From IMG/VR virus record IMGVR_UViG_2574180220_000002: 9,322 bases of DNA. One strand, given 5' to 3'. Every line of letters begins with the position of its first letter. Position 1 is the first letter of the stretch. Position numbers and translations under genes: made by a program. This DNA is from a virus (taxonomy: Duplodnaviria > Heunggongvirae > Uroviricota > Caudoviricetes). Positions 1 through 9,322 of the stretch are shown here, one piece after another. The notes beneath the pieces are model-generated. The model saw nothing but the letters and a program-made list of their open reading frames with translations. It made no database searches and was not told the origin of the DNA.

Positions 1-861
1 ATGAGATTCAGCACCCCATTACGGTATCCTGGTGGTAAAGGTAAATTAACTAACTATCTATCAAAGATCATTATGATCAATGGTTTAGATGGTTGCGAAT
101 ATGTTGAGCCGTATGCTGGTGGTGCTGGAGTAGCCATTAATTTACTTTTGTCTGGGAAAGCATCACGTATACATTTAAACGATCTTAATAACGCCATTTT
201 TTGTTTTTGGCGGTCAATTCTAGAAGAAACTGATCAGTTTTGCCAATTAATTGAAAAAACCCCTGTGAATATGGATGAATGGTATAAGAATAAAAATATC
301 ATTAGTAATCAATGTGATTATTCCTCATTGGAAGTTGGATTCGCTACGTTTTTCCTTAATCGAACAAATCGGTCAGGAATTTTGTTAGGTGGTGTAATTG
401 GTGGTAAGGAACAAAATGGAAAATGGAAAATAGATGCTCGATTTAATAAGGTTGATTTAGTAAACCGTATTAAGGTAATAGCAGACCGTAAATCTGATAT
501 TTGTATCTATAACCAAGATGCTAAATCATTCTTGCAAAATACTGTAACTGGATTCCCATTAAAAACATTGCTTTATCTTGACCCTCCATATTATGTTAAA
601 GGAAAGGGCTTGTATCAAAACCATTATAGTCATGATGATCATGTCGAAATTGCTAATATTATAAAATCTAATTCAAAGCATCCATGGATTGTATCTTACG
701 ATAATACTGTTGAAATAAACAACATGTACACTGGTCTTAGAAAAATTGAGTACGGTATCAGCTATAGTGCTCAATCTAGGTACCAAGGGCCAGAAGTAAT
801 CTTTTTTTGTGATAGCATTTCTATTCCTGATGATATGGATCCTACAAGAGTCAAATTATAG
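1..861 (+). CDS. DNA adenine (N6) methyltransferase, Dam/D12 family
   Basis: 286-aa ORF with ATG at position 1. Contains N-terminal RYPGGK, EPYAGGAGV (AdoMet-binding motif I-like), FFLNRTNRSG and the catalytic DPPY tetrapeptide (LYLDPPYYV), in the order typical of Dam/DpnM/T4 Dam. Visibly much more AT-rich than the rest of the window (by eye, not computed). The 3' end overlaps the convergent integrase gene by 11 bp. Confidence 0.85.
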   Translation: MRFSTPLRYPGGKGKLTNYLSKIIMINGLDGCEYVEPYAGGAGVAINLLLSGKASRIHLNDLNNAIFCFWRSILEETDQFCQLIEKTPVNMDEWYKNKNIISNQCDYSSLEVGFATFFLNRTNRSGILLGGVIGGKEQNGKWKIDARFNKVDLVNRIKVIADRKSDICIYNQDAKSFLQNTVTGFPLKTLLYLDPPYYVKGKGLYQNHYSHDDHVEIANIIKSNSKHPWIVSYDNTVEINNMYTGLRKIEYGISYSAQSRYQGPEVIFFCDSISIPDDMDPTRVKL

Positions 862-1981
862 CTATTTTACTCCAATCTTTCCCTCGGTCATCATGGTAGC
901 GATCTGTTTGCTGCTGGGTTTTATGGCCCAGTAGCTTTCTAGTATCGATCCCCTGTTCTTTGTACAGACGTTCAGATAAAGACCGTTGTTCATGGAATGT
1001 GGCAGGTGAACCTTTCCCCCAATCAATTCCTGCTAAATCTCTTGCTTTACTGAAATTCATAGTCAAGGTATTGGCTTTAACCTGTGCGCCGCGTTCAGCC
1101 TGTGAAGTAGTACGAAAAAAATGTACAAGGTATGGGCTGACAGCATAGTCACGGCAACGGGCTACTACATCGCGCAAACTCCAGTTAATCGCATTGAGGC
1201 GCAGAGAAAGCGGGATGGCGATTTTGCTCCCGGTTTTTTCCTGGATGACGTGAAGATGATCATCCCAAATATCGCTAAATTTCATACGTGAGATATCACC
1301 TAACCGTTGGCCGGTAACCAGTGCTAACAGCATGGCATTCCCCATATAACGATGACTGGCATCTGCAATATCAAAGATTTTTTGCCACTCTTCAAGATTT
1401 AACCGTTGTCGGGTAATTTTTCTTCTGGGTTGTTTGGTTGCCAGTGCAGGATTATAGCCCGGAGGGACTTCCCCATAGTGTTGTGCCTCCTTGAATACAT
1501 CAATTAGAACGGAGCGGACTACTTGCGCCATCCTCGGTTGCCCGGCAGTGATATACTCGTCAAGCAATTGTGCTATATCCCTTACATCAACTGATGAAAT
1601 TAATTTCATTCCTGCTCGTTCCCTGAGCAAGGATACTGGTTTGGCTTTCTGTTTATAGGTGTTGAGCTTTATATCGCCACTTTCCAGTCTGTCATCCTGG
1701 ATTGCTTGATAGCGATCTAACCAGGTTGACGTTGTGATTGCTTTTCCTTTGCTGGTTGCGATCCTGTCACTGATAGCCAGAATCTGCCGGGTTCTTTGCT
1801 CAGCCAGGCGTGAATTTGCCTCAGTGGCAATAGCAATGGCTTCAGCTTCGTTTGTGCCTAAAGAATGAAACTTCCCGGTCACTGGATGTTTATATCGCCA
1901 ATAGACTTTATTTACTTTTCTGCTATAAAGCGGATACAAGTTCGGGACTGAAACATTATTTTTACGTGGTCTGGCTGCCAT
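851..1981 (-). CDS. int: Tyrosine site-specific integrase, lambda Int family
   Basis: 376-aa ORF starting at ATG (1981..1979). Collinear with lambda Int from the N-terminal arm-binding region to the catalytic C-terminus: TGQRLGDI (Arg), HEQRSLSERLY (His-x-x-Arg), LLGHK...DRYHDD (His and the Tyr nucleophile). Appears intact. Confidence 0.95.
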   Translation of the reverse strand: MAARPRKNNVSVPNLYPLYSRKVNKVYWRYKHPVTGKFHSLGTNEAEAIAIATEANSRLAEQRTRQILAISDRIATSKGKAITTSTWLDRYQAIQDDRLESGDIKLNTYKQKAKPVSLLRERAGMKLISSVDVRDIAQLLDEYITAGQPRMAQVVRSVLIDVFKEAQHYGEVPPGYNPALATKQPRRKITRQRLNLEEWQKIFDIADASHRYMGNAMLLALVTGQRLGDISRMKFSDIWDDHLHVIQEKTGSKIAIPLSLRLNAINWSLRDVVARCRDYAVSPYLVHFFRTTSQAERGAQVKANTLTMNFSKARDLAGIDWGKGSPATFHEQRSLSERLYKEQGIDTRKLLGHKTQQQTDRYHDDRGKDWSKIAII

Positions 1982-2222
1982 TACCTAAAATCCTTTGTAG
2001 AATAATAGAATCACTTTTCTTTATTACTGGAGTAACTAACTCCCCAACTAACTCTGCATCCTCACGCACTCGCCATAGTCGACCTTGTTTCATTGCCGGT
2101 GGACAAAATAAATTCTGCTTAGCATAACGACGTAATGTGGACACACTTGGAGGATTACTCCTAAATTTTTCCGCAGCCCATTCCTCAAGTGTCAGCATTT
2201 GAAGCATTTTTGATAACCTCAT
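1962..2222 (-). CDS. xis: Excisionase (Xis, winged-helix DNA-binding family)
   Basis: Small ORF immediately upstream of int, overlapping its start by 20 nt, the usual int-xis arrangement. Product contains LTLEEWAAEKF...PSVSTLRRYAKQ...GRLWRVREDAE, typical of phage excisionases. Start is ambiguous: ATG at 2222 has no SD, while the in-frame ATG at 2207 (MLQMLTLEEW) has AGG about 9 nt upstream. Confidence 0.7.
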   Translation of the reverse strand: MRLSKMLQMLTLEEWAAEKFRSNPPSVSTLRRYAKQNLFCPPAMKQGRLWRVREDAELVGELVTPVIKKSDSIILQRILGNGSQTT

Positions 2223-2250: not shown

Positions 2251-2799
2251 TTAATTTCGCTGTCTGGATTGTTTATGTATCTTATGCAGCTCTTTAAAGC
2301 GTTCCATAAACATCCCGTAGGCATGGCCCGGTGCCAGTGGAATCACGTTGAACATCTCTGTTGCCGGGATACCTTCCAGCACAGGCCAGAAAGAGCCATC
2401 ATCAAGCCCGAGATCGCGGCGTTCGGTTGCCAGCATGATGAGATCGGCATATTTCACGGGCGTACTCATAACTGGGGGTAACCCGTATTTCTCACGGATT
2501 ACGGCGTCTATTTTTTCTTCCATTTGTTTATAGTCAGGAAGAAGGCGTTTCAGTGGTGCGGGAATGTCCTGGCAATACGCTTCTGTTGCATCATGCATTA
2601 ACGCTTCAAAAGCAAATTCCTGCGGCACCAACTGGCTGCAAAGAACCGCATGTTGGGCGACGCTGTAGAAGTGCGAAAGATGACCGGCAAAGCGACAGAT
2701 ATTTGAAAGGGAAACCGCGATATCGTTAATATCGATGTCGTCTTTATTTATCCTGTCATAATAAAAATGCTTCCCGGAAAAAGTTTTAATAAATGACAT
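2251..2799 (-). CDS. yfdR: HD-domain phosphohydrolase (YfdR/YfbR-like 5'-deoxynucleotidase family)
   Basis: Conserved H...HD metal-binding signature (HLSHFYSVAQHA ... LMHDATEAY). The track ORF begins at GTG 2826; I prefer ATG at 2799 (MSFIKTF), which has GGAG 6 nt upstream, giving about 182 aa. Size and position, downstream of a DUF2303 gene and upstream of xis/int, match YfdR of CPS-53-type prophages (from memory). Confidence 0.8.
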   Translation of the reverse strand: MSFIKTFSGKHFYYDRINKDDIDINDIAVSLSNICRFAGHLSHFYSVAQHAVLCSQLVPQEFAFEALMHDATEAYCQDIPAPLKRLLPDYKQMEEKIDAVIREKYGLPPVMSTPVKYADLIMLATERRDLGLDDGSFWPVLEGIPATEMFNVIPLAPGHAYGMFMERFKELHKIHKQSRQRN

Positions 2800-2890
2800 T
2801 TTGTTCTCCACGTATATGCGCTGCACCGCGCTGAATTTTGGTTAAAGAAAACCCTCGCCATCAGGCGATTATTGAGTTAATTACGTTTCC

Positions 2891-2916
2891 ATAAATGCCC
2901 CCGCAGGGGCATTTGC
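2891..2916 (-). terminator. Stable GC-rich hairpin between the DUF2303 gene and the HD gene; candidate intra-operon intrinsic terminator
   Basis: Perfect 9-bp stem AAATGCCCC (2893-2901) / GGGGCATTT (2906-2914) with 4-nt loop. On the minus strand the hairpin runs into UUUAU. It starts 12 nt after the stop of the upstream gene (2927). Confidence 0.4.
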
Positions 2917-2926
2917 AGTAATGAAA

Positions 2927-3751
2927 TCAGGCGGTGAAAGTACCAATAAGGGTTTCTACTTTGCTGTCTTTGAATTTTTCAACAAGCAGATCACGAAATT
3001 CGTTAGCCATTTCTTCCTGTACTGCTTCCAGCTGAATAATGCGCAGAACCAGTACAGGGCGATCACCAGTGATAATGCTGAGGCGTAATTTAAACGGACG
3101 TTCTTTCAGGCCTTCAAACGGAACGCATTTAAACTCAAATGCTACTGGCATAATGTCTTTGGTTTTCGCTTCGACAGACTCCATCAGAGAGCGTTTGCCG
3201 CTGAAGTCATTGTCTTCAAAATCAGCGGTATGGTTTGCTTCAATCGTGATTTTACGGACCGCCGCAGCCGCTTTTGTTGCCTGAATGGCGTCACCATTAG
3301 CATCAAAGCCCACAAGGTAGTCGGCCCAGTCTTCAATCCATTCTGCCAGTGACTTCTGGGAGTTACGCTCGCCGTTAACAGACAACAGAGCAGAGAACGG
3401 TGCTGTCTTTTTCAGTTTGAGAGTGGCGGTGTTATCTGCGTGACCTGGTTCATCAATAGTACCCAGGTTAAGCACACTGACGGCACGCATATTATCGGCA
3501 TCGATAAAGCAGCGGGTGCCTTCATCTGCAAGATCTTTAGAATAACGGGTAAAGTCATCGATGCTGGCAGTGGAAAGTGCACCACGGAAACGGAAGCGAT
3601 TTAAATTAAATTTTTCCAGATCATGAATGCGGAAATTCTCAGGCAATGCCACAGCATCGGCACCAATCTTACTGATAATTTCATTAACACCCTGAGCAGA
3701 AATAAGGGCATGGATTTGATTAATTGCGGTTGCGTCTAAGTTCTGAGACAT
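2927..3751 (-). CDS. yfdQ: DUF2303-family phage protein (YfdQ-like), function unknown
   Basis: 274-aa ORF with ATG at 3751 and GAGGA 6 nt upstream. Coding-like composition. Length and position (between the 120-aa gene and the HD gene) match YfdQ of CPS-53-type prophages, recalled from memory and not verified. Confidence 0.75.
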
Positions 3752-3816: not shown

Positions 3817-4179
3817 TTAATGACCTGCTGCGCGTAGTTTTCCGTCAGGTTCACCGGCAAGAGTCAGTAATTGTCCCTGGTCTTCCTGCAGAATAGTCAG
3901 GCGACCACCGCGATTGACATACATCGGTGTTTCGGTGGTGTCTTCTTCGGAAATTTTCCCGCGGTTAGTCGGGCGAACATATGAGAGTTTGTGTTTGATT
4001 TTCACACGGTTCTCATCAAATGGTTCGATTTCCAGGTTGAGCGAGACCTTACCTTTGGTTTTCGTGTTCATCACACCGGAAGCGACTTCACTGAGAACTG
4101 CGCCGATTTTGGTTTCAAATACGCCGCCGTCCAGCTCCCCGATAAATGCCTGCACATCAGTACTGCGTTCGCTAGCCAT
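3817..4179 (-). CDS. Hypothetical early-left phage protein, about 120 aa (YfdP-like by position and size)
   Basis: The track ORF (3817..4365) begins at TTG, and its first 62 codons are low-complexity (R/C/S/G-rich) and cross a structured non-coding element. ATG at 4179 is preceded by GGGGAG 7 nt upstream and gives MASERSTDVQAF..., 120 aa; ATG at 4197 is an alternative. No recognisable catalytic motif. Confidence 0.6.
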   Translation of the reverse strand: MASERSTDVQAFIGELDGGVFETKIGAVLSEVASGVMNTKTKGKVSLNLEIEPFDENRVKIKHKLSYVRPTNRGKISEEDTTETPMYVNRGGRLTILQEDQGQLLTLAGEPDGKLRAAGH

Positions 4180-4227
4180 TTTGCTGCTCCCCATCATATC
4201 GACCCTGCAAGGTCGGTTGGTTTCTCC

Positions 4228-4327
4228 ACAAAACAGAGAAGAACACCTGCGGTGGCAGCCGCCCGGATGGATTGGGTTATGAGCCCGTCGTCCGGTGATG
4301 CTCTTCTCTGTTTTGTAAAAAGAGCGG
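4228..4327 (-). promoter_or_regulatory. boxA-like motif followed by a long structured hairpin in the leader of the early-left operon (candidate nut/put-type antitermination element or structured 5' UTR)
   Basis: Minus strand reads CGCTCTTTTTACA (4326->4314), resembling boxA (lambda nut CGCTCTTA; rrn TGCTCTTTAACA). It is followed by a perfect 15-bp inverted repeat, ACAAAACAGAGAAGA (4228-4242) / TCTTCTCTGTTTTGT (4302-4316), enclosing 59 nt with nested stems (CCGGA 4263-4267 / TCCGG 4291-4295; GCGG 4249-4252 / CCGC 4259-4262). Lies about 50 nt upstream of the 120-aa gene start. Confidence 0.35.
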
Positions 4328-4860
4328 TACCTGCCGGAAGCAAGTGTACAAACTGGTACCGCCAAAGCAGTGGCTGTTGTGGTGACCGGTGCTGATCTCC
4401 GGCTTGCGGTTATTTCAGACTCTCACGGGCGTTTAATTGCCCCGCCGAACAGCTCTTTTCCGCAATAGCTGCAATGTCTTTCGCGCATCAGTCTGCGCAT
4501 TCACCACAACGCTGAGAGCACTTAGCCAGTTACGGCACCACACTTTGTCGCGGTTCCATAAATGCCCTCATCGTTGCACCCTGGTCTCTTCCCAGGCGTC
4601 AAACCGAATCGCCACGCTGGTTAGGCGTCTTATCAGCATCATCATTGACTTGCACATTCCGGCTACCTAGTTTGTTTGCTCGAGCAAGGAGTGGATTGTC
4701 CCCTTTAACGTCACCAGACCGCTAACGACGCATGTGCCATACGCCGTGTTACAACCAAATTTTGTTAGTACCTTGTTTGTTTGTCTGGAAAGAAAGATAA
4801 AATGAAGTTGCGTATTATGCAAGTGTTTTTGTTGCGAGATATGCAATTTAAAGGGTGATG

Positions 4861-4901: not shown

Positions 4902-5594
4902 TTAATTGTGTCGCTTAAGGGTTTGTGACTGGCTGATTAAGACCTTTCCAAAGACCATAAACCGGTGTTCATTTTCGCTGGTAATTCCCCATTCACGGTA
5001 AATCTGGTTATCAGAAATCACCAGTAGTTTGTCAGGTATCATTTGCAGTCGTTTGACATAAATTTTATCATCAAAACCAAATACATAGATACCATCTCCA
5101 TCAAACTGATTGATACTGACATCAACGAAGATGAGATCTCCTGGCTCAATGGTTGGACACATACTGTCCCCACGAACGTTGATAACTTTAATGTGATTGG
5201 CTGGCCGTCCGCCAAACATCGATACAGCATTATCAGTTCTGTATTCAATGGCATGAATCACATCAATGACATCACCGCCCTGGATAAGGCCATTTCCCGC
5301 ACTGGCACTGACATCCAGCATTTCAATACGGAATACATCCTTCACCTGCGCAACATCCTCACTAATACTGTTTTTACATACAGTATTACTTTTGACGTCT
5401 GAGGTAAAGAGATCAGCAATATCAACACCTAAGCTCCTGGCAATATTACTCAGGGCTTGTTCAGTGAATTGTTTCTGCTTACCTGTTTCCAGGCGTGAGA
5501 TATTCGCCGCATCCACTCCTATTGCTTCAGCGAGATCGGCGATTTTCATGTTCTTCGCCTGGCGAAGTTGTCTGACTCGGTTTCCTATGTTCAT
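4902..5594 (-). CDS. cI: CI-type phage repressor (N-terminal XRE HTH, C-terminal S24 LexA-like autopeptidase)
   Basis: 230 aa. HTH: RVRQLRQAKNMKIADLAEAIGVDAANISRLETGK. Candidate Ala-Gly cleavage site in SASAGNG. S24 catalytic Ser in GDSMCP and Lys in YVKRL. Divergent from a cro-like gene across an operator-rich 97-bp region. Confidence 0.9.
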   Translation of the reverse strand: MNIGNRVRQLRQAKNMKIADLAEAIGVDAANISRLETGKQKQFTEQALSNIARSLGVDIADLFTSDVKSNTVCKNSISEDVAQVKDVFRIEMLDVSASAGNGLIQGGDVIDVIHAIEYRTDNAVSMFGGRPANHIKVINVRGDSMCPTIEPGDLIFVDVSINQFDGDGIYVFGFDDKIYVKRLQMIPDKLLVISDNQIYREWGITSENEHRFMVFGKVLISQSQTLKRHN

Positions 5595-5691
5595 GCGTTT
5601 ATTACATTTCTTTATTGCGCGTTAAGCAAATCAACTTGCGCAAAATATTTGCGTGAAATAATATGCTTATCACGCAATATGTGGAGGTAAT
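5595..5691. promoter_or_regulatory. Divergent cI/cro control region with repeated operator half-sites and candidate back-to-back promoters
   Basis: TTGCG/CGCAA half-sites recur as inverted repeats: TTGC-N7-GCAA (5615-5629), CGCAAA-ATA-TTTGCG (5639-5653), TTGCGTGA-N13-TCACGCAA (5649-5677). Candidate rightward promoter: -35 TTGCGC (5636-5641), 17 bp, -10 TAATAT (5659-5664), then GGAGG (5683-5687) and cro ATG at 5692. Candidate leftward promoter on the minus strand: -35 TTGCTT (5629-5624), 17 bp, -10 TGTAAT (5606-5601), 6 nt, then the A of the cI ATG, suggesting a leaderless cI mRNA. Confidence 0.55.
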
Positions 5692-5916
5692 ATGCAATCA
5701 CCATTACGGAATGTGCGTAAGGCGCACGGATTTACTTTGCAGCATGTTGCTGCTGGCGTTCAGGTCAATCCAGCGACGCTGAGTCGTATTGAAAGACTGG
5801 AACAAATTCCATCTATCGATCTTGCAGAACGTCTGGCCAATTTTTTTAAGGATGAAATCAGCGAAATGCAGATTCTTTATCGTATTTCAGGGATGCTCGT
5901 GCCGAACTGGGTATAA
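5692..5916 (+). CDS. cro: Cro-like XRE-family HTH regulator
   Basis: 74-aa ORF with GGAGG SD. HTH: LRNVRKAHGFTLQHVAAGVQVNPATLSRIE. Divergent from the cI-like gene. The C-terminal tail (from about residue 58) overlaps an out-of-frame HTH-coding segment, so the true C-terminus is uncertain. Confidence 0.7.
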   Translation: MQSPLRNVRKAHGFTLQHVAAGVQVNPATLSRIERLEQIPSIDLAERLANFFKDEISEMQILYRISGMLVPNWV

Positions 5917-5954: not shown

Positions 5955-8686
<2,732 letters not shown>

Positions 8687-8687
<1 letters not shown>

Positions 8688-9322
8688 TGGAATTCAGAAT
8701 GAGTGAACAACCACGGACCATAAAAATTTATAATCTGCTGGCCGGAACTAATGAATTTATTGGTGAAGGTGACGCATATATTCCGCCTCATACAGGTCTG
8801 CCAGCAAACAGTACCTATATTGCACCGCCAGATATTCCGGCTGGCTTCGTGGCTGTTTTCAACAGTGATGAGTCATCGTGGCATCTCGTTGAAGATCATC
8901 GGGGTAAAACGGTTTATGACGTGGCTTCCGGCGACGCGTTATTTATTTCTGAACTCGGCTCATTACCGGAAAATGTTACCTGGTTATCGCCGGAAGGGGA
9001 GTTTCAGAAGTGGAACGGCACAGCCTGGGTGAAAGATGCAGAAGCAGAAAAACTGTTCCGGATCCGGGAGGCGGAAGAAACAAAAAACAGCCTGATGCAG
9101 GTAGCCAGTGAGCATATTGCGCCACTTCAGGATGCTGTAGATCTGGAAATCGCAACGGAGGAAGAAACCTCATTGCTGGAAGCCTGGAAAAAGTATCGGG
9201 TGTTGCTGAACCGTGTTGATACATCAACTGCACCTGATATTGAGTGGCCTGCAACCCCTGTTATGGATAATCGTTCCTGTTGTAGCCACAGTCACGTCAT
9301 ATACAAGAACTTGCTGGCCTAA
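8687..9322 (+). CDS. tfa: Tail fibre assembly protein (Tfa family chaperone)
   Basis: 211 aa, starting [54 protein letters not shown]..., the conserved Tfa N-terminus of lambdoid/Rac/e14-type prophages. Translationally coupled to stf through the ATAATGG overlap. The last ~17 residues ([18 protein letters not shown]) look like a non-canonical extension. Confidence 0.88.

Follow-up and report, generated by a model that had tools for sequence, protein, structure and literature searches.

In the present study, we analysed a window of 9,322 nucleotides (nt), which is the whole stretch of DNA from the IMG/VR virus record IMGVR_UViG_2574180220_000002 and which was found to be the remnant of an SfV/mEp460-type lambdoid prophage of E. 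coli. The window contained an RNA element on its minus strand (4321-4223), just upstream of yfdP, the first gene of the early-left operon. We are nearly certain that the element belongs to a conserved family of structured RNA, and we consider it quite probable that the element is derived from a tRNA. The family, its arm of the initiator-tRNA type and the modular leaders that carry it appear to be uncatalogued. The general kind is already known, both from tRNA pieces placed on other RNA scaffolds and from stable RNAs in phage leaders.

Structure and covariation of the leader RNA

The element and its 3' region contained the following parts.

4223-4321, minus strand: the element, about 99 nt with three helices; the 5' strand of helix P1 lies at 4321-4297 and its 3' strand at 4247-4223
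4263-4295, minus strand: P2, the conserved arm, CCGGA-C-GA-C-GGG-[CUCAUAA]-CCC-AA-UC-CA-UCCGG, with the loop at 4283-4277
4249-4262, minus strand: P3, the variable hairpin GCGG-CUGCCA-CCGC
4227-4220 (in the region 4200-4227), minus strand: conserved 3' extension GGAGAAAC, whose GGAGA pairs with the U tract that precedes the element
4215-4200, minus strand: small hairpin CGACC-UUGCAG-GGUCG

The strands of P1, UUUUUACAAAACAGAGAAGAGCAUC (4321-4297) and GGUGUUCUUCUCUGUUUUGUGGAGA (4247-4223), were paired over about 25 base pairs (bp). An earlier sequence-only reading of the window had described a perfect 15-bp stem around a 59-nt loop with at least two nested stems. These were all present (4316-4302 paired with 4242-4228, enclosing 4301-4243), and the helix was found to extend beyond the 15 bp. 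The junction residues at 4296 and 4248 were A, and the 59-nt interior was folded into the two nested hairpins P2 and P3. Folding, which that reading had proposed as a check, gave -65.3 kcal/mol for 146 nt against -41.3 +/- 4.1 kcal/mol for shuffled sequences (z = -5.9), and none of the 200 shuffles folded as well. The hairpin also persisted unchanged in the fold of the whole 631-nt leader. It is therefore real and far above chance.

A distant search with positions 4180-4420 gave the first relatives, as short interior matches in phages of Salmonella, Citrobacter, Pantoea and Klebsiella. The core GA-C-GGG-CUCAUAA-CCC-AA-UC-C was unvarying in nearly all copies. The family contained a P1 of 5-26 bp, a one-base junction, P2 and P3. 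P2 consisted of a basal helix of 5-8 bp, a bulged C or C/CA loop, GA/UC, a C/AA internal loop, GGG/CCC and the CUCAUAA loop, in that order, and P3 ranged from 4-11 bp to a branched insert of about 40 nt and was absent in the copy from Acidobacteriaceae. The trimmed elements were 63, 64, 65, 66, 67, 68, 69, 82, 84, 86 and 88 nt long. The 3' extension and the small hairpin were found in the early-leader class only. In the relatives the small hairpin contained other stems around a U(U/G)GCAG loop, such as GGCGG-UGGCAG-CCGCC and GCGCC-UGUGCAGA-GGCGC.

The pairing was conserved along with the core. Among 29 hand-picked representatives, 96.9% of the cells were paired and changes on both sides were found in 11 of the 21 pairs; when the partners were slid by 1-3 columns as a control, pairing fell to 32-47%. 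For 86 model-aligned hits (69 distinct sequences) the values were 97.4% and 16 of the 21 pairs, both to be read as upper bounds because the alignment was fitted to the model and many of the sequences come from related prophages. The sequence-only reading had also named covariation in homologues as a check, and the stems were indeed kept by compensatory changes. Across all 50 distinct early-leader variants, the length of P1 stayed at about 25 bp, and its positions 6, 9, 12 and 17 had changed in a compensatory manner (G-C/C-G and A-U/G-C swaps). The basal 5 bp of P2 covaried (GC/AU/UA/CG/UG types) around a constant P2 core, and P3 contained both-sided changes in all 4 of its pairs. Between lineages, the helices of P1 and basal P2 were rewritten as CCGGA/UCCGG, CCGGG/CCCGG, CCAGG/CCUGG, CCUGAU/AUCAGG, CUGUCU/GGGCAG, CUACCU/GGGUAG and CUCCAAUC/GAUUGGAG. 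The outer helix was GGCCUG/CAGGCC in Klebsiella phages, GGCCC/GGGCC in the late-leader copies of class C (described below), GCGCGGGCUG/CAGCCCGCGC in Acidobacteriaceae and the 25-bp helix in the window.

No family of Rfam 15 matched the element at the gathering threshold or at E <= 10, and none matched it in the relatives, so that the database check proposed earlier came back empty. The core sequence gave no match in the searchable literature. Among the options raised by the sequence-only reading, a structured 5' untranslated region or small RNA agrees with these results, and can be specified as a conserved family of RNAs with three covarying helices, one arm of which is tRNA-like.

The same changes bear on a protein-coding explanation, in which the hairpin is part of an N-terminal extension of YfdP (open reading frame (ORF) 3817-4365, TTG start) or is crossed by a small ORF. 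The yfdP frame is open through the hairpin, and small ORFs are annotated there in some records (mEp460_036, Flotzy CDS0053). The length differences among the copies are not multiples of three and the helices change by compensatory substitution, and for this reason the coding explanation is practically excluded. RefSeq carries no such annotation in nearly all of 2500 records, and yfdP has a Shine-Dalgarno sequence of its own and an ATG at 4179.

Likeness to the initiator tRNA and genomic placement

The 14 nt of CGGGCUCAUAACCC (4287-4274) were exactly those of the E. coli metY anticodon stem-loop. Identity with metY over 12 nt was reached by 5 of 20000 shuffles of the element. Like the initiator tRNA in its anticodon stem-loop, the tip of P2 has three G-C pairs and a CUCAUAA loop. 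This combination sets the initiator apart from the elongator Met and Ile2 tRNAs. The tRNA-Met of Klebsiella phage KlebP_265 had only the loop in common with the element. Ten further copies were found at loci with connector motifs (described below), and CAU was kept in all but one of them, L290, which contained UAU. Diverged copies that keep CAU had the loops UUCAUAU, CCCAUAA and ACUCAUAA, in which the bases around CAU vary. In its mitochondrial mode, ARAGORN called the copies of Acidobacteriaceae, GZ7 and L167 as armless 'mtRNA-Met(cat)'. The Rfam tRNA model matched the neighbouring tRNAs and not the element.

Scans with the core pattern found the element in more than 120 viral contigs, later in 26 further viral contigs and in 28 metagenome stretches; the large collections were scanned by exact pattern, and range and diversity are probably underestimated. 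In contigs taken as one genome per species, 28 stretches contained the core and 26 were genuine by the covariance model. Among 5426 complete E. coli genomes, 2492 (46%) contained the element; a single genome could have as many as five copies, and annotation was nearly always lacking. The carriers belonged to about 15 genera of Enterobacterales, including Shigella, Citrobacter, Enterobacter, Klebsiella, Raoultella, Kosakonia, Leclercia, Phytobacter, Mixta, Pantoea, Erwinia, Buttiauxella, Pseudescherichia and Pseudocitrobacter, and Salmonella phage ST64B was also a carrier. A metagenome-assembled genome of Acidobacteriaceae and matching peat-bog contigs contained a copy in a prophage-like region with an endolysin gene. 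Further copies were found in human-gut phage contigs from metagenomes, and the P1-like phage RCS47 contained a diverged copy with the UUCAUAU loop.

The copies were found in three genomic contexts. In class A the element lies in the early-left leader, just 5' of the first gene (YfdP/sb37-like, RdgC-like or YfdR). In class B it lies in the late leader of Klebsiella and Pantoea phages, 6 nt 3' of a tRNA, and ends in (A/G)CCA. The order in Klebsiella phage GZ7 was Q, terminator, tRNA-Asn, tRNA-Arg, element, terminator and holin, with the element 6 nt after the tRNA-Arg gene and the intrinsic terminator 65 nt downstream of the element. Class C copies also belong to late leaders: a Q-like gene (PHROG 753) and a terminator come first, and a holin gene begins about 50 nt after the element. 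In every case examined, the element follows a terminator or a tRNA gene and precedes the first coding gene of a long operon. One copy was found per locus and none on the rightward early side, and in no context examined did the element lie beside int or att. The distance to the next start codon was 45-60 nt in many of the early-leader and class C copies, and overall ranged from about 18 nt (the Acidobacteriaceae copy) to about 230-250 nt.

These placements also bear on the explanation that the element is a decaying tRNA pseudogene or a recombination relic such as an att site, without function, and that its stem is an accident of inverted repeats. It is true that the sequence is tRNA-like, that tRNA genes are adjacent in some phages and that some copies contain single changes in the core. 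This explanation is nevertheless improbable: the core was constant while three helices were rewritten in a compensatory manner, across phyla and in the three contexts; P1 was held at about 25 bp in 50 variants; and no int or att neighbour was found in the contexts examined.

Some single records were also observed. Near-identical copies of the E. coli type in L290 (9504-9566), L285 (5882-5944) and L242 (4181-4243) contained single core substitutions (a CUUAUAA loop, and CUC or ACC replacing CCC) and may be decaying copies in defective prophages. A contig labelled Chryseobacterium contained an enterobacterial-type copy (L138 3346-3433, 74.8 bits) upstream of an sb37-like gene, which is probably due to assembly contamination or mis-binning. 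The CPS-53 prophage of E. coli K-12 contained yfdP and lacked the element, the upstream region being replaced by iteron-like repeats.

Other candidates for the identity of the element were tried and rejected. The M3 RNA of phi80, a substrate of RNase P, is annotated in the phi80 record as the oop homologue (36229-36288), and the model found nothing in phi80. A hammerhead-like CUGAUGA in the Klebsiella copies was absent from the other classes, lacked GAAA and had no Rfam ribozyme hit, and was considered a coincidence. The Pas small RNAs (sRNAs; bioRxiv 10.64898/2026.05.13.724894) have a similar neighbourhood (Q, holin, tRNAs) but are terminator-ended Hfq sRNAs, and there was no evidence that any of them equals the element. 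An extended match of the CUCAUAA loop to the start-codon region of the next gene was inconsistent, with 4-6 complementary nt in some genes (AUGAG, sb37-like) and only 3 nt in the window.

The boxA-like string, antitermination and the rest of the leader

Just 5' of the hairpin, the minus strand contained CGCTCTTTTTACA at 4326-4314, which the sequence-only reading had taken for a close match to boxA, the NusB/NusE-binding element of the lambda nut sites. The string itself is there, and its CGCUCUUU agrees in 7 of 8 bases with the boxA of lambda, CGCUCUUA. The 8-mer YGCTCTTT (CGCTCTTT) was no commoner than chance predicts: it occurred once in the window against 0.65 expected, and at least once in 94 of 200 shuffles. 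Compared with GYTCTTTAANA, the functional boxA consensus of gamma-proteobacteria (PMC5725501), CGCTCTTTTTA differed at 3 of the 11 positions. This consensus was matched by none of 151 element copies, and among 25 distinct 13-mers at the same position YGCTCTT was found in only one, which was the window's own type. The string was found to belong to another structure:

4317-4363, minus strand: terminator-like hairpin, consisting of GGCGGUACCAGU (4363-4352), a 17-nt loop, GCAGGUACCGCU (4334-4323) and CUUUUU (4322-4317)

The fold of this hairpin was -16.4 kcal/mol. The segment 4326-4314 takes in four bases from the end of its stem, the U tract and three bases from the start of P1. In 98 of 135 distinct upstream contexts, this position was occupied by a GC stem of 8-12 bp with a T run after it, compared with 18 of 675 shuffles. 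The stems differed in sequence and kept their complementarity, as in TGTCGGCGTC/GACGCCGACC of ST64B, TTGCCCATC/GGTGGGCAC of Flotzy, GCGGCATCTGT/GAGGATGCCGC and GGCGGTTATCCA/TGGATAACCGCC. The loop was long in the window type (17-23 nt) and measured 5 nt in the Flotzy type, compared with 3-8 nt in typical intrinsic terminators. The conserved part at the position of the supposed boxA was the T run, which pairs with GGAGA at the base of P1 in 92-96% of the early-leader variants. The supposed boxA is the 3' arm and U tract of a preceding terminator-like hairpin and no NusB/NusE site, and taking such a terminator shoulder for boxA would be an easy misannotation. Termination at 4363-4317 is a putative function, suggested by the stem and the U tract.

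A conserved block, AUUGCUGUGUGUAGUCUU, was observed upstream of the terminator-like hairpin in ST64B, phiNP and Flotzy (L004 2425-2512; L006 2400-2520). A pairing of UGUGUAG with UUACACA could join this block to the U tract and the initial bases of P1, as an alternative to the base of P1. This alternative pairing was absent from the window's version.

The sequence-only reading had suggested an enlarged nut site of the lambda type, in which NusB/NusE would bind at boxA and the hairpin would take the place of boxB, its N-like partner being encoded elsewhere or lost. The position just 5' of a hairpin in an early-left leader speaks for it. The boxA-like string is unconserved and part of the terminator-like hairpin. 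We are highly confident that the element is not a nut site; an enlarged nut is extremely improbable. The CGCU bases end a covarying stem of 9-12 bp and would therefore be base-paired, and the U tract is taken up by GGAGA. The structure of about 100 nt with three helices and a 7-nt loop is not a 15-nt boxB (5-bp stem with a GNRA-like pentaloop). In mEp460, an intact relative, cro overlaps the next gene and thus leaves no room for nutR. The element also lies in late leaders and after tRNAs. The earlier statement that no N-like ORF is present was borne out: the leader ORFs of 25-36 amino acids (aa) had no PHROGs hit and their frames differed among ST64B, Flotzy and the window. One block, VNAQTDARKTLQLLRKRAVRRGN in the 36-aa ORF 4543-4433 (minus strand), resembles the start of lambda N, MDAQTRRRERRAEKQ. 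It was rejected as an N-like ORF: its conservation is at the nucleotide level, as a hairpin after GUUGUGGUGAAUGCG, its frame differs in ST64B and Flotzy, and it had no PHROG hit.

A put-like RNA of the HK022 type, the second option of that reading, would be a protein-independent processive antiterminator, whose nascent RNA stays on RNA polymerase and suppresses downstream terminators and pauses, with readthrough in cis that depends on the zinc-binding domain of the beta' subunit. This would suit an element confined to the leaders of long phage operons (both early-left and late), with an invariant core that would fit a conserved surface of RNA polymerase, an intrinsic terminator 65 nt downstream in GZ7, and no N-like protein. 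We consider it unlikely. Neither the covariance model nor blastn found a match in positions 22000-40751 of the HK022 record, a segment that, by our reading of the genome layout, should contain both put sites along with PL and PR, put itself being unannotated in the record. The sites of HK022 differ from the element in architecture, position and copy number: put is about 70 nt long with two stem-loops, putL begins where the PL transcript begins, and another copy lies downstream of PR (PMC9378689), whereas the element has three helices and occurs once per locus, about 470 nt from PL and directly after, not before, the leader terminator, with no copy found on the rightward side. The late-leader copies sit behind the gene of the Q antiterminator and would have no need of an RNA antiterminator. 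Nor does this explanation account for the identity with a tRNA stem-loop.

The expectation of antitermination had rested on a strong hairpin further down the operon. The hairpin at 2893-2914 (minus strand), AAAUGCCCC-UGCG-GGGGCAUUU, is real and has a UNCG tetraloop; it has no U tract and is no canonical intrinsic terminator. Downstream of the element, the operon contained a single weak terminator-like site (2868-2855, 5-bp stem). On these two grounds the argument from downstream terminators is weak. In a group of prophages of the L008 type, which lack yfdP and yfdQ, the hairpin of 2893-2914 was found directly after the element and before yfdR. It therefore seems that yfdP and yfdQ form a cassette that was gained or lost between two RNA structures.

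The leader upstream of the element contained further structured parts.

4507-4576, minus strand: module 1, an upstream long-stem module, CAACGAUGAGGGCAUU...AAGUGCUCUCAGCGUUG; 70 nt, -30.6 kcal/mol, at least 11 loci
4375-4523, minus strand: connector, consisting of a GUUGUGGUGAAUGCG hairpin ... CCGG-AGAUCAGCA-CCGG hairpin - CACCACAAC

The stem of module 1 had CAAC...GUUG ends as in the element and a different interior. Its equivalents in phiNP, L223, L132 and RCS47 contained T-arm-like interiors, for example GGUUCGAUUCC and GGGUUCGAAUCCC. ST64B, phiNP and Flotzy likewise contained two modules, with a GC stem and T run before each. Long-stem modules with CAAC...GUUG ends and variable interiors were also observed in the relatives L005, L223, L132, L218, L287 and L214. 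A scan with the connector motif gave 67 distinct modules of this kind. Their interiors contained further CAU-loop arms and T-arm-like hairpins such as GGGUUCGAAUCCC, GUCCG-UUCAAUU-CGGAC and GCGGUUCGAUUCCGC.

The connector is closed by UGGUG (4506-4502) with CACCA (4384-4380), and was 95% identical over 149 nt to RCS47 (L214 1398-1546), where it lies directly 3' of tRNA-Asn/tRNA-Thr. In KlebP_265 the connector motifs were repeated in tandem, about every 195 nt, near tRNA-Ser/Arg/Met (L213 1412-1451, 1501-1534, 1603-1647 and 1701-1729). Matches below threshold to STnc100 (RF02076) were found in ST64B (L004 2298-2416) and RCS47 (L214 2103-2223), with 35-38 bits against a gathering threshold of 47; they cover the connector, not the element, and the STnc100 consensus closes with the same UGGUG/CACCA. 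The Rfam search of the window itself gave no STnc100 hit. Previous work described STnc100 and PasD as sRNAs of prophage leader regions near Q and holin genes (bioRxiv 10.64898/2026.05.13.724894), and both may be related to the leader connectors. A 'hairpin-NCCA minihelix' at 4405-4380 (CCGG...CCGG-UCACCA) was rejected as a candidate, since the STnc100 consensus pairs CACCA with the upstream UGGUG. In RCS47, the ORFs plp and upl were observed to be annotated on the opposite strand of the apparent structured-RNA array.

The genes and signals of the window were as follows.

851-1981, minus strand: int
1962-2222, minus strand: xis
2251-2826, minus strand: YfdR-like gene with an HD domain
2927-3751, minus strand: YfdQ-like gene (DUF2303)
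3817-4179, minus strand: yfdP, ATG at 4179, 120 aa, PHROG 204, first gene of the early-left operon
4192-4187, minus strand: Shine-Dalgarno GGGGAG of yfdP
4794-4846, minus strand: early-left promoter region, with operators TTGC-N7-GCAA at 4808-4822 and 4832-4846, found by repeat and motif search
4822-4794, minus strand: putative early-left promoter, -35 TTGCAT (4822-4817), 17-nt spacer, -10 TATCTT (4799-4794)
4902-5594, minus strand: S24 repressor (cI)
5692-5916, plus strand: cro
5955-6443, plus strand: C-terminal fragment of an N6/N4 DNA methylase, directly after cro
6448-7065, plus strand: fragment of the tail-tip protein J
7026-8687, plus strand: tail-fibre gene

By its operators and promoter-like motifs, the element sits in a leftward, repressor-controlled leader of about 600 nt, which the sequence-only reading had called the early-left leader, with a predicted transcript start near 4787. 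The operator motif was found again between cI and cro, at 5615-5629 and 5663-5677, and the same layout of -35, 17-nt spacer and -10 was common to the leaders of ST64B, phiNP and Flotzy. The RefSeq annotation of a locus with 98.7% identity contained no gene in the leader. GenBank records of phages contain hypothetical ORFs over leader and element on either strand (mEp460_037, L002 4093-4461; mEp460_036, L002 4503-4646; L006 2460-2654), which are probably over-calls. Neither of the two opposite-strand mEp460 ORFs is annotated by RefSeq, and no similarity was found between mEp460_037 and Plp of P1. Genes for replication, late regulation, lysis and head were missing from the remnant (5955-8687). 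A full-length match to the sRNA family IS009 (RF02111) was observed at 9030-9228 on the plus strand (229.5 bits, gathering threshold 117), inside or beside the tail-fibre region.

Proposed mode of action and comparison with known systems

We propose that the element is a conserved tRNA-derived RNA module of untranslated operon leaders, which is processed and acts by tRNA mimicry. With all its inferred steps, this statement has about an even chance of being right. That the RNA is processed and acts through mimicry rather than purely in cis is rated a little below even; what is left after this, the cis explanation below and put-like antitermination falls to another function or to none. Temperate phages would place the module behind a terminator-like hairpin or tRNA genes and before the first protein-coding gene. 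When leftward transcripts from PL pass the terminator-like hairpin, the U tract and the next 20 nt would fold into P1. The 25-bp P1 would then serve as a double-strand processing stem, for which RNase III is the obvious candidate; in tRNA arrays, the short P1 with its NCCA end would be a substrate for tRNA-processing enzymes. Processing may thus release a stable RNA, about 65-100 nt in length, and uncouple the yfdP message from the leader. Whether freed or embedded, the arm may present an anticodon arm of the initiator type, with CAU, to a host factor that is conserved across phyla, the specificity being the same in Proteobacteria and Acidobacteria. Candidate partners would be initiator anticodon nucleases of the VapC type, the P site of the 30S subunit and an enzyme that reads CAU anticodons. 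The promoter, the terminator, cleavage by RNase III and the partner are all predictions from the DNA.

Several observations weigh against this proposal. ARAGORN found 0 genes in the window and, in its standard mode, 0 in 8 representatives. tRNA offers no counterpart to the GA/UC pairs, the C/AA internal loop or the bulged C that the family conserves, and the Acidobacteriaceae copy, which lacks P3, indicates that an L-shaped mimic of tRNA is not required. What is mimicked would therefore be the stem-loop, and the resemblance may go no further than this part of the tRNA. The terminator-like hairpin of the window has a large loop (17-23 nt) and was not called by a simple terminator scan. The fitted alignment and the related prophages overstate the number of independent covariation events. 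The distance of 45-60 nt to the start codon in many copies also fits a purely cis role.

Such a cis-acting leader element would contain, in its long helix, an RNase III site or a 5' stabiliser that governs how stable the first cistron is or how it is translated, while the arm docks a protein or the ribosome in cis. The early-leader and class C copies lie at the distance just given from the first start codon; in the early leader, the 25-bp P1 is conserved, and the conserved GGAGAAAC and the small hairpin precede the Shine-Dalgarno sequence. The downstream genes are unrelated (YfdP, RdgC-like, YfdR, holins), as would be expected for a generic leader device. An RNase III-sensitive hairpin is reportedly present between nutL and the N start in lambda. 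The size of P1 was compared with the two turns (about 20 bp) that RNase III needs: it was 25 bp in the window and 19-26 bp in all early-leader variants, whereas the late-leader copies had only 5-11 bp, and those with 5-7 bp are too short for RNase III. The spacing to the start codon varied from about 18 to about 230-250 nt, and in class B an intrinsic terminator lies between the element and the holin gene. The placement in tRNA arrays and the NCCA end are not accounted for. We give the cis explanation roughly one chance in four.

A more specific form of our proposal is offered tentatively and is rather unlikely as it stands. Temperate phages of several phyla would encode a decoy of the initiator-tRNA anticodon arm, cut from the leader at operon readthrough, which absorbs tRNAfMet-cleaving nucleases of the host or else occupies the 30S P site or an initiator-specific factor, and the T-arm-like sister modules would be decoys for other activities directed at tRNA. 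In Shigella, Salmonella and many further bacteria, toxins of the VapC type with a PIN domain cut the anticodon stem-loop of tRNAfMet (review PMC7180214). If the decoy form is true, these leaders would be RNA-based anti-defence arrays that protect translation initiation.

If the broader proposal is true, an uncatalogued RNA is carried by nearly half of the sequenced E. coli strains, by many other enterobacteria and by at least some distant phages. Its sole invariant part would be a copy of the initiator-tRNA anticodon stem-loop, and it is placed where phages otherwise put their tRNA genes. It would give a handle on the role of the long untranslated early-left leaders in N-less phages of the SfV, ST64B and mEp460 types, on why the tRNA regions of phages hold conserved structures that are not tRNA, and on whether phages deploy RNA mimics of tRNA parts against tRNA-directed systems of the host. 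The alignment is ready for a covariance model of a new RNA family.

Several known systems resemble the element in part. The operator of thrS is an anticodon-arm mimic that binds ThrRS, and likewise places a tRNA piece on a non-tRNA scaffold. In the YrlA or Y RNA-like RNAs, the 5' and 3' ends form a long stem that carries a tRNA-like part. Unlike both, the element mimics the initiator anticodon stem-loop, and no rsr gene or aminoacyl-tRNA synthetase gene is nearby; the Rfam model of YrlA gave no match at the element. RNase III processes rRNA and the leaders of T7 or lambda at long stems. The RNase III stems of rRNA and of T7 early mRNA are similar in that long flanking helices enclose a functional RNA just downstream of a boxA-like string, whereas the cargo of the element is about 60 nt and tRNA-like, and cleavage is here a prediction.

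The nutL/N leader of lambda is likewise early-left and controlled by a repressor, with a boxA-like string 5' of a hairpin and, not far upstream of the first cistron, a long helix of a size suited to RNase III; the leader of the element differs in its length of about 600 nt, in the terminator-like hairpins before its first gene and in having no boxB and no N. Similarly, putL and putR of HK022 are structured RNAs in phage operon leaders with no dedicated protein in sight. A canonical tRNA contains a D arm, a T arm and a 7-bp acceptor, whereas the element lacks the D arm and the T loop, and its 'acceptor' helix in the early leader is 25 bp long and has no CCA. The genomic niche of the element is that of the tRNA genes in lambdoid late leaders (Q - PR' - tR' - tRNA). 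In the tRNA arrays of phages, the element of the Klebsiella phages is the next unit after tRNA-Asn/tRNA-Arg, with a loop of the CAU anticodon type.

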